Program-made: the position numbers and the translations under genes | Assembly (NCBI GenBank): GCA_963762145.1 | Contig: CAVXJS010000019.1 | Coordinates: forward strand, 32,001-96,000 | Reading direction: 5' to 3' | Source of the DNA: an uncultured Candidatus Rokubacteria bacterium | Lineage (GTDB): Bacteria; Methylomirabilota; Methylomirabilia; Rokubacteriales; CSP1-6 | Length of the DNA stretch: 64,000 nucleotides | In this document: positions 16,336-22,588 of the stretch, piece after piece | Position numbering within the stretch: the first letter of the stretch is position 1 | Layout: every line of letters begins with the position of its first letter | The notes under the pieces: generated by a model | What the model was told of the DNA's origin: nothing | What the model saw: only the letters and a program-made list of their open reading frames with translations | Database searches by the model: none

Positions 16336-17682
16336 TCAGCCCTCGATCAGCTCCACCCGGAACAGCGCGCCCGGATCCTCGACCGCGACCAGGTGGTGGA
16401 TCGTGAACTCGTAGGCCTCACCCGCGCGCAGGTCGGAGGGCGAGAAGGGGAACGCGAGGTTGCCCGCGATCGCCTGGCGGCCGGGATAGGTCACGTGCAA
16501 GGCCACCGAGCGCGCCAGGGCCAGGACGGCGGCGGAGGTCTCGGGGTCGTCGGCGATCACCTCGATGATGAGGCCGATCTCGTGGGGCCGCCCGTGGCGC
16601 ACCGGCTCGAGCGGGCCCATGACGCCGTCGCGGCCGTAGACGTGGAACATGAGCCGATAGCCGTCGGGGTAGGTGTCGGCGACGCGCGTGCGCACGTTGG
16701 CGAGGTAGGCGTCGAGGTTGGCGATGAGCTGGGGCTCGCGTACGCCCGCGATGGACAGCGTGCGGAAGCCGACGCGCGTGACGCCTTCGAGCTTGAGCGT
16801 CGGGGTGGCGGCGGGGACGAAGCGCGTGCCGGACACCCGCACCGCGCGATCCCCGGAAGGCTCGAAGCGCGTGGCCTTGAGGTCGATGTGCCCGTGGGGC
16901 AGGTGGAGCTCGTAGGGATTGGCCCGCTCGTAGAGCGAGTGCGCGGCCACCGAGGCCACCGTGCAGACCTTGTCCGGGTTCGGCGGCTCGACCGTGAAGG
17001 CGTCGTCCTCGATGACGCCGAGCAGGCTGTCCGAGCCGTGCCGCGGATAGGCGGCGGCCCCGCCGCATTCGAGGATCTTGCCCATGTGCAGCGCCAGGCC
17101 CGGGTCGAAGCCGGCCCGGATGGGAAAGGCCGCGATGACCGCGGCGTCGCACGCGCGCCCGGCGATGACCACCTCCGCGCCGGCGTCGAGGGCGGCCAGG
17201 AACGGCTCCACGCCCATCTGGGCCACGATGCGCGCGGCCCCATCCACGTCGGCGGCGGTCAGCGCGCGGTCGTGGTCGAGCGGGCGCACCCGGCCGCCCG
17301 CGACCTGCGTCCGCAGCCAGCCGCGATCCACCTCGGCGTCGATCACCGCGGTGCGGAAGCGGTAGCCCCGCTCGCGGCAGAGCTCGCGGTAGAGATCGAG
17401 CGTCCACTCCAGGTGCGGGCGGCCGCCACCCCCGCCCGCGGAGCCGATCAGCACCGGGATGCGCCGGTCGCGCGCGGCGTCGAGGATCATGGTGAGATCG
17501 CGCTTGGCCGCGCGGCGGTTGACGAACGGCACGCCCGCGCCCAGGTAGTAGGGACCGGGATCGGTCGAGCCGGCGTCGAGCGCGAGGACCGCCGGGTCGC
17601 GGGCGAGGCCGCGCTCCATGGAGCGGGCGGGTATGCCGTAGCCGAGCATGCCGAGCGGTGCCAGGACGGTCATCGGCTGCAT
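16336..17682 (-). CDS. AtuA/DUF1446 (acyclic terpene utilization N-terminal-like) family protein
   Basis: GMLGYG, DAGSTDPGPYYLG, VIAGRACD, HMGKILECG, AGNLAFPFSPS. Confidence 0.8.
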   Translation of the reverse strand: MQPMTVLAPLGMLGYGIPARSMERGLARDPAVLALDAGSTDPGPYYLGAGVPFVNRRAAKRDLTMILDAARDRRIPVLIGSAGGGGGRPHLEWTLDLYRELCRERGYRFRTAVIDAEVDRGWLRTQVAGGRVRPLDHDRALTAADVDGAARIVAQMGVEPFLAALDAGAEVVIAGRACDAAVIAAFPIRAGFDPGLALHMGKILECGGAAAYPRHGSDSLLGVIEDDAFTVEPPNPDKVCTVASVAAHSLYERANPYELHLPHGHIDLKATRFEPSGDRAVRVSGTRFVPAATPTLKLEGVTRVGFRTLSIAGVREPQLIANLDAYLANVRTRVADTYPDGYRLMFHVYGRDGVMGPLEPVRHGRPHEIGLIIEVIADDPETSAAVLALARSVALHVTYPGRQAIAGNLAFPFSPSDLRAGEAYEFTIHHLVAVEDPGALFRVELIEG

Positions 17683-17693
17683 GGAGAGCTCCC

Positions 17694-18020
17694 TCAGACG
17701 GGATCCGGCCACGGGATCGCGTGGCCGGCGAGCGGGACGTGCTGCTGCGCTCCGTACACGTCGGTCTCCCCGACCGCGCCGGAGGGCCACGGGCGGCGCA
17801 GCGTGATCTTCACCGCGAACGCCGGCTCGAACTCGATGATGTCGACGACGTCGTCGGGCGAGATGCCGTAGAGGCCGGCCACCGTGGCGCGGTCGAGCGG
17901 CTGCCCGGCCACGAACCGGCGGTAGGTCGCCTCGTCCGGGAAGACGATGTCGAGGGTGAGGAGGAACGGCCCCGCATTCTTGCTCGTCACGAACGTGGCG
18001 ATCTCGCCGATGGTCTTCAT
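17694..18020 (-). CDS. DUF4387 family protein
   Basis: SKNAGPFLLTLDI and GETDVYGAQQH motifs; usual neighbour of the AtuA-like gene. Confidence 0.8.
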   Translation of the reverse strand: MKTIGEIATFVTSKNAGPFLLTLDIVFPDEATYRRFVAGQPLDRATVAGLYGISPDDVVDIIEFEPAFAVKITLRRPWPSGAVGETDVYGAQQHVPLAGHAIPWPDPV

Positions 18021-18029
18021 CGCGAGGCC

Positions 18030-18058
18030 ATCGCACCACTCCGGCCCTGCGCTGTCAA
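18030..18058 (-). promoter_or_regulatory. Sigma70-type promoter of the DUF4387-AtuA pair
   Basis: TTGACA-N17-TGCGAT with an extended TG, 9 nt before the ATG. Confidence 0.55.
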
Positions 18059-18073
18059 GAGACGGGCGGCGCC

Positions 18074-19492
18074 TCAGTCCGGAAGCGGCGGGCGCCGCGC
18101 GTGCCACTCGGTGGCGCGCTCGTAGGCGCGGGCCGCGCGGAGCAGCGTCGCCTCGGCGAGACGCCGGGCGATGAGCTGCAGGCCGATCGGCAGCCCGCCG
18201 GTCGTGAATCCGCAGGGCAGGGAGAGCGCGGGCACGCCGGCCAGGCTCGCGGGCGTGGTGTAGGAGCGCCGGTTGAAGAAACGCCGCCCCGCCTCGGCGC
18301 GCGAGGTGATCGGGGCCTGGGCGCTGGCGATCGGCGGGGCCGGCGTGGGCCCGGTGGGCGCCAGCAGCACGTCGAAGCGCGTCAGCGCGCCCTCGACCTG
18401 CGCGCGGATCGCCCCGCGGGCCCGCGCGGCCTGCTGGCCGAGCGTGGCGGGCAGCAGCGCCGCGGTGACGAGCCGTCGGCGCGTGCCGGGATCGTACTCG
18501 TCGCCCCGGGTGGCCAGGGTGCGGTGATGCCAGGCCGCCGCCTCGCCGTCCGCCAGCGCCATGAAGACCGCGCCGGCCAGGGGCAGCAGCGGCAGGGCGA
18601 CGTCCTCCACCCGTGCGCCGAGGCGACGGAGCGTCTCGGCGGCCTCGCGGACCGCGGCGCGGACGGCGGCGTCGGTGTCCGGACTGTCGACGAGCTGGGT
18701 GACGACGCCGATCGAGAGGCCGGCGACGCCCCGCTCGAGCTCTCCCCGCGGGTCGGAGGGCGCGGCCTGCGCCCACCGGTCGTGGCCGTCGGGGCCCGCG
18801 ATGATCGAGAGGAGCAGCGCCGCGTCCTCCACCGAGCGGGTCAACGGGCCCGGCGCGTCCATCGACCACGCCACCGGCACGCAGCCCGAGCGCGGGACCA
18901 GGCCCCAGGTGGGCCGGAGCCCGACGGCGCCGCACCACGAGGCCGGGCTTCGCACGGAGCCGCCGGTGTCCTCGCCGAGGGTAGCCGCGGCGAGCGCGGC
19001 CGCGGCCGCGATGCCGGAGCCGGAGGAGGACCCGCCCGTCTCGCGCGTCTGATCCCATGGGTTGCGCGGCTGGCCGAAGGGGTGGGTGAGCGTGCCGCCC
19101 AGCGCGAACTCGGTGAGGTTCAGCTTGCCGAGCAGGATCCCGCCCGCCGCGCGGAGGCGCGCCACCACCGTCGCGTCCTCGATCGGCACGCGGTCGGCGT
19201 GAAGCCGCGAGCCCGAGGTGGTGCGCACGCCCGCGGTGTCGAACTGGTCCTTCACCGCGAACGGCACCCCGTGGAGCGGCCCGAGCGCCGCGCCGCGGGC
19301 GAGCGCCTGTTCCGCGGCCCGGGCCTCCGCGAGCGCACTCTCCCGACAGACCGTGACGTACGCGTGGAGGGTGGCATCCCAGCGGTCGATGCGCGCGAGG
19401 TAGGCCTGCACCACCTCCACCGGCGAGACCGAGCGCGCGCGGATGAGCCCGGCCAGCTCGGCCGCGGTCCGATAGGCGAGATCCGTGGTCAT
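18074..19492 (-). CDS. Amidase-signature family enzyme (GatA/AtzE-like)
   Basis: GPLHGVPFAVKD, GGSSSGS, GEDTGGSVRSPA. Confidence 0.92.
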   Translation of the reverse strand: MTTDLAYRTAAELAGLIRARSVSPVEVVQAYLARIDRWDATLHAYVTVCRESALAEARAAEQALARGAALGPLHGVPFAVKDQFDTAGVRTTSGSRLHADRVPIEDATVVARLRAAGGILLGKLNLTEFALGGTLTHPFGQPRNPWDQTRETGGSSSGSGIAAAAALAAATLGEDTGGSVRSPASWCGAVGLRPTWGLVPRSGCVPVAWSMDAPGPLTRSVEDAALLLSIIAGPDGHDRWAQAAPSDPRGELERGVAGLSIGVVTQLVDSPDTDAAVRAAVREAAETLRRLGARVEDVALPLLPLAGAVFMALADGEAAAWHHRTLATRGDEYDPGTRRRLVTAALLPATLGQQAARARGAIRAQVEGALTRFDVLLAPTGPTPAPPIASAQAPITSRAEAGRRFFNRRSYTTPASLAGVPALSLPCGFTTGGLPIGLQLIARRLAEATLLRAARAYERATEWHARRPPLPD

Positions 19493-19683
19493 CCGCGGTG
19501 CGGGAGATCGGGCGGCGCGATGGGGGCCGGCTCGGCGCCGGCGAGGTCGAGCGCGGCGAGGCCGCCGAGCACCTCCACGAACGCGTTCAGGCGGTGCGTC
19601 ACCTCGGCCAGGTCGGGGCCGTCGAGCGGCAGGCCGGCGGCGGCGGCGAGCGCGCGGACCTGGTCGGGAGTGAGCTCGATCAT
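19489..19683 (-). CDS. Small GatC/AtzG-like amidase partner subunit (64 aa)
   Basis: MIELTPDQVRALAAAAGLPL...LAALDLAGAEPAP; ATGA overlap with the amidase. Confidence 0.65.
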   Translation of the reverse strand: MIELTPDQVRALAAAAGLPLDGPDLAEVTHRLNAFVEVLGGLAALDLAGAEPAPIAPPDLPHRG

Positions 19684-19772: not shown

Positions 19773-21485
19773 CTAGGCGGGCCCGAGATCCTCCGCGGCG
19801 TCGGCCAGCAGCCGCTCGAATGACGGCGGGAGGTCGATCGGGCGGCCGACCACGCCCGGGCTGTAGCCCTGCAGCCAGTAGCTGTTGGTCGGGTGACCGC
19901 CGCCCGCCACCACGATCACGAAGTTGTCGGGGCTCGCGGTGATCGGCCACGGATCGAGCGCGAGGCTCTCGCGGGCCACCTTGCTGGTGTCGATCTCGAT
20001 CCACGCCGCACCGCCCGCGCGGCGGAGCGCCTCGGCGGGGATGCGGGAGTGCTCCCAGAGGAACTGGCGCATCGAGGCCTTGGTCCAGCCGAGGCCGGCC
20101 ATGGTCTGCGCGACCACGCCCGGGATCATCAGGATACCCGGGGTGCCGTGCTCGTAGCCGGCGAGCCCGGCCATGTTGGGCACGCGCATGAAGTCGGCCA
20201 TGCGGTGCATGCCCTGGAGCGCGTCCTCCTCGGGCGTCTCCTTCTTGGCGCCGCGCCGGCGGATGTTCGTGGCCCCGTTGGCGAAGGCGAGGGAGATCGA
20301 GCTCTCGCCCGGCGCGAAGCCGTGGCGCTCGGTGCCGTGGGGCGCCCATCCCGGGGGCAGGTTGGCCTCGTCCTCCGCGAAGACCACGTTCGTGTAGCGC
20401 AGGCCGCCGTAGTTGGCCATGGTGCCGATGCCGGGCAGGGCGCCGCCGAGGTTCTGCTGCAGCAGGCGCAGCGCGCGGCCGATGCTCGCGCCCGCCGGCC
20501 GCTGCGGATCCGGGCCGAGGCAGCCGAAGCCGGCGTTCAGCCGGATCCGAGCGCCGATCGGCCCGTTGACGATCACCACCGGAAACGCGCTGCCCGACGC
20601 GGCCTGCAGCGCCTCGCTTCCCGACTCGGGATCGAGGAAGGCCTCCACCGCCGCCACGAGGACCGGGAGGTACTCGGGCCGCCCGCCCGCCATCGCCAGC
20701 GCGATGGCGCACGACTCGACCGTGGTCACGCCGCCCCGCGGGGGAAAGGCGCCGAGCTTCCGCCCGCGCGGATGCGCGGCGCCGGCGAGGATCCAGTCCA
20801 CGCGCGCCCGCGTCGGGGGCCAGAGCGGCAGGCCGTCGCCCCAGCGGTTGGCGAGCATCAGGTGGTTGGCGCGGGCGAGCGCGTCCTCGACGCTCGCGCC
20901 CTCCACGGAGATCATGGGCGCCTCGCCCGCGGCGTCGCGGTCGAGAGCCGAGCGCCAGCGCGTCAGCCCGTCGTAGAACTCCTGCTTGCGCGCCTCCACC
21001 GGGGTGATGTCGCTGCCCGGCAGGAACATCTCGATGGGGAAGGTGACCATCGCCGCGTCCGGGGCCAGCCCGAGGCCGGCCACCGCATTCGTCATCACGC
21101 CGACGAAATCGGCCCGGGTGAGCGTGACCGTCGGGATCCCCTGGGCTTCGAGCCTGGCGGCCGACCGGCCGCACGCCGTGGCGCAGGTCCCTCAGGCGGC
21201 GTTGCCGATGATGACGGCGTCGACCCCGCTCGCCTTGACGAGCGCCGCCGTCTCCTCCGAGCCGATCACCGCGTTGCCTTGGGGGAAGGCGTCGATCGGC
21301 AGGACCTCGATGCCGGGGAAGTCCGCTTCGAGCAGCGCCTTGAGCAGCGGCAGCATGCGGTAGGCCTGCCACTGCTCGTTGCTGACGAAACCGATCCGCT
21401 TGCCGGCGAGCGCGTCGATGCGCGGGGCGTGGGGCTGCTTCACCTCGATGGCGCCGGAGGGGTCGTGGAACTCGAGGGTGATCAT
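19773..21485 (-). CDS. UGSC-family selenoprotein fusion (~570 aa) with in-frame UGA at 21192-21194 read as Sec
   Basis: ORF 21192-21485 and ORF 19773-21098 are in the same frame, separated by one TGA. Read-through gives VIIGNAA-U-GTCATACGRSAARLEAQGIPTV. Confidence 0.85.
21157..21172 (-). promoter_or_regulatory. Putative bacterial SECIS hairpin
   Basis: GCGGCC-GGUC-GGCCGC stem-loop starting 19 nt after the UGA. The GGUC apical sequence matches that of the E. coli fdhF SECIS. Confidence 0.7.
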
Positions 21486-21556
21486 TCCGGAGCCGAGTAT
21501 AGCCCAAGGGCCGCGCTTGACCCGGCTCTCTCGCGTGTGTTAGGTCCGAGGGCACC

Positions 21557-22588
21557 ATGACCATCACGATCTTCGGCGCTGGCGCGATCGGAGGCACCAC
21601 CGGGGCCGCCCTGGCCCAGGCGGGGCACGACGTGCTCCTGGTGGACAGCAACGCGGAGCACGTCGCGGCCATCAATGCCCAGGGCCTCACGGTGGAGCGC
21701 GAGGGCAAGACCACCACGACGCGGGTCCCCGCGGTCCTGGCCCGGGATCTCGGTGACGGCCTGGATCTCGTGATGCTGGCCGTGAAGAGCCATCACACGG
21801 AGGACGCGCTCGGTGTGCTGGTTCCGAAGCTGGCGGCGGGGAGCACCGTGGTGTCGCTGCAGAACGGGCTCAGCGAGGAGCAGATCGCCCGCGCGGTGGG
21901 CCCGGCGCGCACCGTCGGCTGCCTGGTGAACTGGGCCGCGGACTGGGTGGCCCCGGGGCGCATCCTCCACGGAGGCCACGGGGCCTTCGTGCTGGGCGAG
22001 CTCGACGGCCGGATCACCTCTCGCGTGAAGGATCTGGCCGCGCTGCTGAGCGCGGTGGAGCAGACGCCGGTCACGGACAACATCTGGGGCTACAAGTGGG
22101 GCAAGCTCATCTACGGGGCGCTCCTCTTCGGCACCGCGGTGGTGGACGCCCACGTGTACGAGGTCGTGGAGCGGAGCCACGGCGTGCAGCAGGCGCTGGT
22201 GGGGATCGTGGGCGAGGGGCTCGCGGTGGCCGACAAGGCGGGGGTACGCGTCGAGCCCTTCGACGAGTTCGATCCGGCCTGGTACCGCGCCGCGCTGGCC
22301 GGGGACACGAGCGCGCGGACGCGCGCGATGACCGCCATCGCCGCGCACTACCGCGCCCACACCAAGACCAAGACCGGCATCTGGCGCGATCTCGCGGTGC
22401 GCAAGCGCAAGACCGAGGTGGACGGCCAGCTCGGCATGCTCGCGCGCAAGGGCGAGGGCCTCGGCGTGGCCATGCCGCTGACCCGACGGCTCGGCGAGCT
22501 GATCCGCGATCTGGAGGACGGCCGCCGGCAGATGGACTGGGCCAACCTCGATCCGCTCGTCGCCCTCGCGGGCGGGGCGCGCGCGTGA
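21557..22588 (+). CDS. Ketopantoate reductase (PanE/ApbA) family oxidoreductase
   Basis: IFGAGAIGG, LAVKS, SLQNGL, KWGKL, KTEVD. Confidence 0.88.
   Translation: MTITIFGAGAIGGTTGAALAQAGHDVLLVDSNAEHVAAINAQGLTVEREGKTTTTRVPAVLARDLGDGLDLVMLAVKSHHTEDALGVLVPKLAAGSTVVSLQNGLSEEQIARAVGPARTVGCLVNWAADWVAPGRILHGGHGAFVLGELDGRITSRVKDLAALLSAVEQTPVTDNIWGYKWGKLIYGALLFGTAVVDAHVYEVVERSHGVQQALVGIVGEGLAVADKAGVRVEPFDEFDPAWYRAALAGDTSARTRAMTAIAAHYRAHTKTKTGIWRDLAVRKRKTEVDGQLGMLARKGEGLGVAMPLTRRLGELIRDLEDGRRQMDWANLDPLVALAGGARA

Follow-up and report, generated by a model that had tools for sequence, protein, structure and literature searches.

A two-domain selenoprotein gene concealed by an in-frame UGA codon in a soil Rokubacteria genome

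Two open reading frames (ORFs) that follow one another in the same frame, parted by a single TGA, may be two genes or one, and the genome of an uncultured soil bacterium of the Candidatus Rokubacteria led us to ask which. The locus lies in a 64,000-nucleotide (nt) stretch of contig CAVXJS010000019.1 (assembly GCA_963762145.1, positions 32,001 to 96,000), hereafter the window, on whose reverse strand an ATG-initiated ORF of 97 amino acids (aa; 21485..21192) terminates at TGA 21194..21192, and in which the frame past that codon continues uninterrupted until TAG 19775..19773, including a 441-aa ORF (21098..19773) with a GTG start at 21098. An earlier reading made from the letters alone (the sequence-only reading) had proposed that UGA recoding joins the two ORFs into a selenoprotein of about 570 aa. 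The frame is indeed open from 21485 to 19773 with one TGA, and when that codon is translated as selenocysteine (Sec; U in one-letter code) the product has 570 residues, U98 being the only codon that departs from translation table 11. The residues around it read I-I-G-N-A-A-U-G-T-C-A-T-A-C, so that the proposed motif A-A-U-G-T-C-A-T-A-C, with its UxxC pair, is present as U98-G-T-C101.

The two apparent neighbours are one 570-residue selenoprotein gene, because the Pfam UGSC match spans the TGA, because 575-aa cysteine-containing (Cys-form) homologues align with the translation from end to end (64–66% identity over 100% of its length), and because in 12 orthologues synonymous changes occur before as well as after the TGA. 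The UGSC match itself (PF24696) scores 75.7 bits against a gathering cut-off of 25 and covers residues 7–151, corresponding to model positions 3–145 of 172, which bears out the family to which the sequence-only reading had assigned the protein. In a word-indexed protein search (7999 candidates scored, 2190 relatives), 104 of the best 120 of the 2190 homologues are 425–457 aa long and cover 74–80% of the query at 85–97% identity, while the other 16 are 575–577 aa long, cover 100% of it at 64–66% identity and carry PF24696; an exhaustive protein search returned 3731 cluster representatives at E ≤1e-3. Protein records also hold N-terminal fragments of 97–123 aa, among them a 97-aa protein (P0198) that is 94% identical to residues 1–97 and represents the other half of the split gene call. 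The gene is routinely miscalled in the records of relatives, much as the sequence-only reading had anticipated of gene callers; public calls split it almost everywhere, and a predicted 570-residue enzyme is thereby hidden from protein databases.

We then considered what stands at position 98 in relatives. Among the aligned full-length homologues of 575–577 aa the residue is Cys in 16 of 16, as is position 101, so the alignment that the sequence-only reading had called for came out in its favour. At the nucleotide level, searches of 41 genomes (the source genome and relatives; threshold E ≤1e-60) found matches in 14: besides the source genome, these are 13 of the 24 further members of its family, and the 16 genomes drawn from elsewhere in the order gave 0. 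In the 13 related genomes each match across the site contains a single TGA, and the codon is TGA in 12 of 12 extracted orthologue loci. A wider scan, with each GTDB species represented by one genome, returned 356 relatives, the best 80 of which were retained (68–94% identity); TGA occupies the site in 80 of these 80 (69 by a first pattern, 11 by a wider one), and they are named as Rokubacteria/Methylomirabilota and Betaproteobacteria/Burkholderiales, plus a few odd bin labels. Orthologues share the motif U-G-[T/S/A]-C-A-T-A-C, whose first four residues vary only at the third. A metagenome scan queried with a Cys-form protein added 41 loci, the site being present in 34 (19 Cys, 15 TGA). Pooled, these sets, whose genome parts overlap to some extent, give 106 loci of the Sec form, which reduce to 94 unique 120-nt sequences, and 19 of the Cys form: TGA is kept in all 106 of the former, and the latter have TGC (18) or TGT (1).

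The genome (6.26 Mb in 25 contigs, 88% complete) possesses the means to decode such a codon. All of the Sec machinery that the sequence-only reading had suggested looking for was found above curated cut-offs: selA (577 bits), selB (363 bits), selD (341 bits) and, as selC, a tRNA-Sec of 69.3 bits (gathering score 47), with selB, selA and the tRNA-Sec clustered on contig C9. Taken together, the UGSC match that spans the TGA, the Cys of homologues, the retention of TGA across the 106 loci and the presence of this machinery indicate that the codon is almost certainly selenocysteine. Nor is it a base-call error, the remaining concern of the sequence-only reading: DNA runs from two studies yield contigs that match the window across the TGA (20915–21389 and 21022–21231, 0 differences each), although the window may itself have been assembled from one of these samples. 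RNA-library contigs also bridge the site, but they come from relatives about 90–92% identical and may contain DNA, and we draw no conclusion on expression from them. As a side observation on the machinery, the best selD copy (C11:419505-420437, + strand, 341 bits) itself holds one in-frame TGA and probably encodes a Sec-containing SelD; a second copy, without a TGA, lies on contig C14 (280 bits).

If UGA is recoded, an RNA signal should be sought close by, and the sequence-only reading had pointed to a hairpin resembling a selenocysteine insertion sequence (SECIS) 19 nt downstream. The hairpin, GCGGCC-GGUC-GGCCGC, is there (21172..21157), its first base separated from the UGA by 19 nt and its loop beginning 25 nt past it (loop 25–29 nt); the usual spacing rule for bacteria places 16–37 nt between UGA and loop. 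The Sec-form and Cys-form loci provide a natural contrast. The stem has five core pairs, which all of the unique Sec-form sequences can form (94 of 94) and none of the Cys-form ones (0 of 19), even though Cys forms encode the similar peptide A-L-G-R-A-A-A. The Sec forms without exception write codon +7 as TGC and codon +8 as GGC (94 of 94 each); at codon +11, 85 of them have GCC and 9 have GUC, which retains a G-U pair. Nearby codons vary, with Gly +1 written as GGG (66), GGC (21) or GGA (7) and Gly +18 with four codons. The Cys forms (n = 19) use four Leu codons at +7, GGC (9), GGT (4), GGG (2), GGA (1) or Ala codons (3) at +8, and GCG (10), GCC (7), GCA (1) or GCT (1) at +11.

An additional outer pair, formed across a bulged U, links two third-codon positions, and in the 94 sequences it appears as A-U (46), G-C (25) or U-G (11), with 12 unpaired; the resulting 82 of 94 paired sequences compare with a mean of 53.1 in shuffles, 0 of 10000 of which reach the observed number. 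This contrast and this covariation bear out the SECIS-like character claimed for the hairpin, and it is a well-supported reading of the comparison that it constitutes an RNA element under selection in Sec forms only, behaving as a SECIS. Its shape varies between lineages, with a 6-base-pair (bp) stem and a GGKC loop in rokubacterial copies and a 5-bp stem and a 6-nt loop containing GU in betaproteobacterial ones. The E. coli fdhF SECIS is alike in being a short stem-loop a few codons past the UGA, with an unpaired U bulging from its 5' arm and an apical loop rich in G, but its sequence is unrelated to that of the window hairpin (loop GGUC). Codon contrasts of this kind between natural Sec and Cys forms offer a clean definition of a SECIS without experiments, and one usable for correcting gene calls.

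The same comparison bears on the 'extra Cys' that the sequence-only reading had added to the redox motif. The residue, C105, is present, but the 16 aligned Cys-form proteins all have Leu at this position (16 of 16), and its TGC codon contributes two bases to the hairpin stem, so that C105 may owe its conservation to the RNA and not to a redox function.

Three other explanations of the recoded frame can be set against these data. Were the TGA a true stop, the locus would make separate proteins of 97 aa and 441 aa (the latter from the GTG at 21098) with no selenocysteine inserted; gene callers yield exactly such products, as the 425–457-aa homologues and the recorded N-terminal fragments attest, yet termination here would halve the UGSC domain, at a site that is Cys in homologues, in a genome equipped for Sec, and at a TGA kept together with its downstream hairpin in 106 loci of two phyla, and we think it highly implausible. 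We give still less credence, indeed almost none, to a pseudogene produced by a TGC-to-TGA nonsense mutation or to an assembly error at this codon. Other genes of the assembly do look frameshifted, such as a fused paralogue near 370 kb of contig C14 that matches in two frames, but 12 of 12 orthologues and 80 of 80 genome loci have the same TGA, third codon positions vary to either side of it, and the zero-difference contigs from two DNA studies bridge it; the conservation alone has already effectively refuted this explanation. It is rather less far-fetched, though still quite improbable, that the hairpin is a by-product of the peptide A-C-G-R-A/S-A-A and of high G+C content, and that another element directs recoding. 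Its folding energy is no better than that of shuffles, mean hairpin energies are close in the two forms (−11.8 kcal/mol for Sec, −10.3 for Cys), and the Gly-Arg-Ala-Ala peptide is conserved in Cys forms too. Those Cys forms, however, with nearly the same peptide, vary their codons freely and never build the core stem (0 of 19), while the stem codons of the 94 unique Sec forms show no synonymous change as neighbouring codons vary, and the A-U/G-C/U-G covariation falls at two synonymous sites.

What kind of protein does the joined frame encode? Its N-terminal part is the UGSC domain. An AlphaFold2 model built from a 61-sequence alignment reaches, for the whole chain, a predicted local distance difference test (pLDDT) value of 94.7 and a predicted template modelling (pTM) score of 0.94, from which the UGSC domain and the large C-terminal domain are predicted to pack tightly and in a fixed way. 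By DSSP, U98 of the model comes after strand 90–96, at the N-terminus of helix 99–114. Fold searches with the whole protein gave only generic Rossmann/flavodoxin-like matches, to residues 24–181; the best has Z 10.3 over 125 aligned residues (root-mean-square deviation (rmsd) 2.7), and numerous unrelated chains score Z 8.3–10.3. A sequence search of the PDB with the subfamily profile returned 0 matches at E ≤1. The protein does not reach the cut-off of the NCBIfam equivalog NF041046 (125 bits), scoring 47.0; a Cys-form relative (P0076) scores 42.7, and a stand-alone and a fused paralogue from the same genome score 141.3 and 127.6. Canonical stand-alone UGSC proteins (NF041046/PF24696, about 150–180 aa) have in common with it the Pfam family, the Sec/Cys column and a hairpin after the UGA, but differ by this margin in NF041046 score. 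With about 33% identity to the fused paralogues of its own genome, the window copy belongs to a divergent subfamily of the UGSC fusion type, and within the subfamily alignment C101 is invariant. A C-terminal C-G-x-x-x-C tail occurs in the Cys forms and in at least 15 betaproteobacterial Sec-form copies, and reads C-G-x-x-x-C-x-I in Cys forms such as P0076 and in betaproteobacterial loci such as L068, L070 and L073; the window protein and the other rokubacterial copies have no such tail.

The sequence-only reading had further recognized a fusion of the UGSC domain to a large domain and noted that the latter is usually a separate neighbouring gene. Both points stand. The window protein has the domain order of the fusion described in 2008 by Zhang and Gladyshev in section 9 and Figure S1A of supplement 1 (PMC2398784), and the Figure S1A block of the partner that they show, termed Unknown_1, is recognizable in it. 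The genome as a whole holds eight UGSC Sec sites, all TGA, divided between four fused genes and four stand-alone UGSC genes, each of these last directly downstream of a stand-alone Unknown_1 gene; the order is UGSC then Unknown_1 in the fusion and reversed in the split pairs. As all eight units are fused or adjacent, UGSC and Unknown_1 very probably work together; they may form the one Se-dependent enzyme complex that the sequence-only reading had inferred. Thus a single soil Rokubacteria genome carries eight UGSC units, each fused to or beside the same uncharacterized domain. The seven sites outside the window lie on contigs C7, C11, C14 and C21 (three fused genes, four split pairs), the fused copy near 370 kb of C14 being the one that looks frameshifted, with matches in two reading frames. 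These seven share a different hairpin, with a 9-bp stem that starts 10 nt after the UGA, as opposed to the 6-bp stem and loop at 25–29 nt in the window.

The finding is accordingly sound but not new, and the window gene is best regarded as a member of the fusion type published in 2008 (PMC2398784) rather than as a new kind of system. The sections of that paper on UGSC-containing proteins describe them as a major selenoprotein family without a Pfam or COG domain (255 sequences in 37 Global Ocean Sampling (GOS) samples) and as among the most abundant selenoproteins of aquatic metagenomes (PMC2398784). The GOS fusions shown there are built in the same way, with UGSC and its U-G-x-C at the N-terminus and Unknown_1 after it, and their alignment block V-M-A-G-C-R-P-E-Y ... 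V-N-G matches residues ~262–309 of the window protein (PMC2398784). They come from the surface ocean and, like most family members, have a Cys after M-A-G; the window protein comes from soil Rokubacteria, has the motif U-G-T-C-A-T-A-C and belongs to a subfamily with Gly268 at that place.

Unknown_1 itself gives few clues by homology. Among 62 family members, Pfam (E ≤1) offers no family for the large domain, the only match being UGSC in 37 of the 62, NCBIfam has none for the C-terminal domain of the window protein, and two longer relatives of 713–717 aa (P0175, P0261) have no Pfam domain in their extra parts. Across 62 relatives E371 is invariant, and D217, G218, P220, P223, T225, T255, M265, G267, P270, N307, G308, P309, R337, E373, W380 and G528 are nearly so. 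There is no conserved Cys: position 268 is C in 28 of the 62, G in 19 and A in 15, and in the window and all 17 subfamily sequences it is Gly, so that the Cys of the published M-A-G-C is absent there. Modelled alone, the domain attains a pLDDT of 94.9; yet in a structure search of 48161 PDB chains (VIA-align) the best Z is 5.0 (83 residues, rmsd 3.6), with none reaching Z 8, and the best Foldseek match has E 1.6e-2 and probability 0.33. Pieces of encapsulin/HK97 capsids, class I fumarate hydratase, 'Toblerone' cyclic amide hydrolases and YjgF-like proteins were considered as fold candidates and rejected, all at Z ≤5.0 or Foldseek probability ≤0.33. Being large and highly conserved, with invariant Glu, Arg and Thr, Unknown_1 looks like a substrate-binding catalytic domain.

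How such a protein might act can be sketched by analogy. The UGA at codon 98 is very probably decoded as selenocysteine by the host SelA, SelB, SelD and tRNA-Sec under the direction of the G+C-rich hairpin with its loop 25–29 nt downstream; in the product, the large domain would bind and activate a small substrate, the selenol of U98 would attack or reduce it, C101 would resolve the intermediate to a selenenylsulfide, and a cellular thiol system would re-reduce the latter. A selenol/thiol reductase is our best guess, one to which the UxxC motif, the invariance of C101 in the subfamily and the position of U98 at a helix N-terminus all lend themselves, and the scheme would broadly resemble the way in which selenoprotein B works in glycine and D-proline reductases. 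With GrdB, GrdF, GrdH and PrdB (TIGR01917, TIGR01918, TIGR04483) the window protein shares a UxxC redox motif after a β-strand and weak matches around the Sec region (E 0.007–0.035, 13–15 bits; for TIGR01918, 13.1 bits at E 0.035 against a cut-off of 65.45), and hhalign against a PrdB-like selenoprotein of the same genome places U on U and C on C over 68 columns (E 0.0054, probability 6.7%). It differs in that these scores lie far under the family cut-offs, in that no pyruvoyl proprotein partner of the GrdE/PrdA type is seen for it, and in that its own partner is an unrelated domain without a family. We therefore treat the relation as a working analogy, possibly a distant homology, and not as membership. 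The PrdB/GrdB-like selenoprotein of this genome (C8:71668-72294, + strand) has one in-frame TGA and a T-U-P-F-C motif, and scores 37 bits with TIGR01918 (cut-off 65.45).

Taken as a whole, the explanation that one Sec gene of 570 residues is decoded with the help of a hairpin into a two-domain protein of inferred redox function seems to us very likely, but a number of observations weigh against it. The link to GrdB/PrdB is weak, at 13–15 bits against cut-offs of 65–800 and the hhalign probability given above. Of 29 remoter full-length relatives, 20 have Cys at position 98 but 9 have Ser, Gly, Ile or Arg there, which implies that some members cannot use a redox pair of the U98/C101 type. The energy of the hairpin alone is not unusual for such G+C-rich DNA (z = 0.34 for a 71-nt stretch, with 116 of 200 shuffles folding at least as well), and an Rfam scan of 20900–21600 at E ≤10 gave nothing SECIS-like, though Rfam may hold no bacterial SECIS model; the rows that it did return (CRISPR-DR23, sR1, sR41) are at chance level. 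The sequences of related organisms are not independent and the counts overstate statistical weight, although the contrast between Sec and Cys forms in the stem appears clear all the same. The portions of 2022 and 2026 reviews that deal with the UGSC-containing protein still class it as an uncharacterized selenoprotein, and in the parts of the literature on UGSC selenoproteins that we drew on no functional study turned up. Finally, the neighbours of the gene in the window are not conserved, no neighbour cluster occurring in more than 15 of 81 loci compared all against all; the gene is thus a self-contained unit, whose context names no substrate. The commonest neighbours elsewhere, each in at most 15 of the 81 loci, are a four-rhodanese protein, TauD, a CoA-transferase III, an acyl-CoA dehydrogenase and an amidohydrolase.

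Some of these neighbours suggest another function, that of a sulfur or selenium carrier or transferase bearing a persulfide or perselenide on U98/C101. In 10 of the 81 loci, all in Burkholderiales (for example L103:7747-9360), the next gene downstream encodes a protein of four rhodanese domains and overlaps the end of the selenoprotein gene (median −43.5 nt), and a TauD-family dioxygenase recurs in 11. Such neighbours are a minority, however, and absent from the window, and the conserved partner domain, with its apparently substrate-binding and catalytic character, speaks against a mere carrier; we judge this alternative unlikely and continue to favour a reductase. More speculative is a combined picture, possible but in our estimation rather doubtful, in which the family would be a widespread, self-contained Se-dependent reductase with a catalytic fold unseen in solved structures, its Sec module a miniaturized distant relative of GrdB/PrdB, the partner of the soil subfamily having lost its Cys and the Cys105 codon being kept for the SECIS RNA. 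If that were so, all redox chemistry in the soil subfamily would pass through U98/C101.

Table 1. Coordinates of the selenoprotein gene, its parts and associated features (window positions unless a contig is named)
Feature	Position	Strand	Basis or detail
Single selenoprotein gene	19773..21485	−	ATG 21485..21483, internal Sec codon, TAG 19775..19773; 570 residues
UGA codon 98, almost certainly read as selenocysteine (U of U-G-T-C)	21192..21194	−	Cys in homologues, TGA in Sec-form loci, Sec machinery
SECIS-type hairpin	21156..21174	−	6-bp stem 21172..21167 with 21162..21157; loop GGUC 21166..21163; bulged U21173; outer pair G21174-C21156
UGSC domain, residues 7–151	21033..21467	−	Pfam PF24696, AlphaFold2 model and DSSP; α/β, Rossmann/flavodoxin-like
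'Unknown_1' domain, residues 186–570 (385 residues)	19776..20930	−	Figure S1A block of PMC2398784; conserved columns
Fused UGSC/Unknown_1 genes (4)	window; C11 ~389 kb; C7 ~195 kb; C14 ~370 kb (apparently frameshifted)
64-aa ORF	19492-19683	−	No Pfam match at E ≤0.01
Amidase	18074-19492	−	PF01425, 366.9 bits

Within the window, the selenoprotein gene is divergent from a ketopantoate-reductase-like gene (ApbA; 21557..22588, + strand) and is followed downstream by the 64-aa ORF, the amidase, a DUF4387 gene and an AtuA-like gene. ApbA and an M28 peptidase are neighbours common only to the two closest loci. The TGA stop of the 64-aa ORF overlaps the amidase ATG (ATGA), which suggests translational coupling, and the ORF may resemble the small GatC/AtzG-like partners of some amidases. 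The block comprising the 64-aa ORF, the amidase and the DUF4387 and AtuA-like genes (16336-19683, reverse strand) is absent from the otherwise syntenic locus of a 92% identical orthologue (L046), which indicates a probable local insertion or deletion beside the selenoprotein gene.

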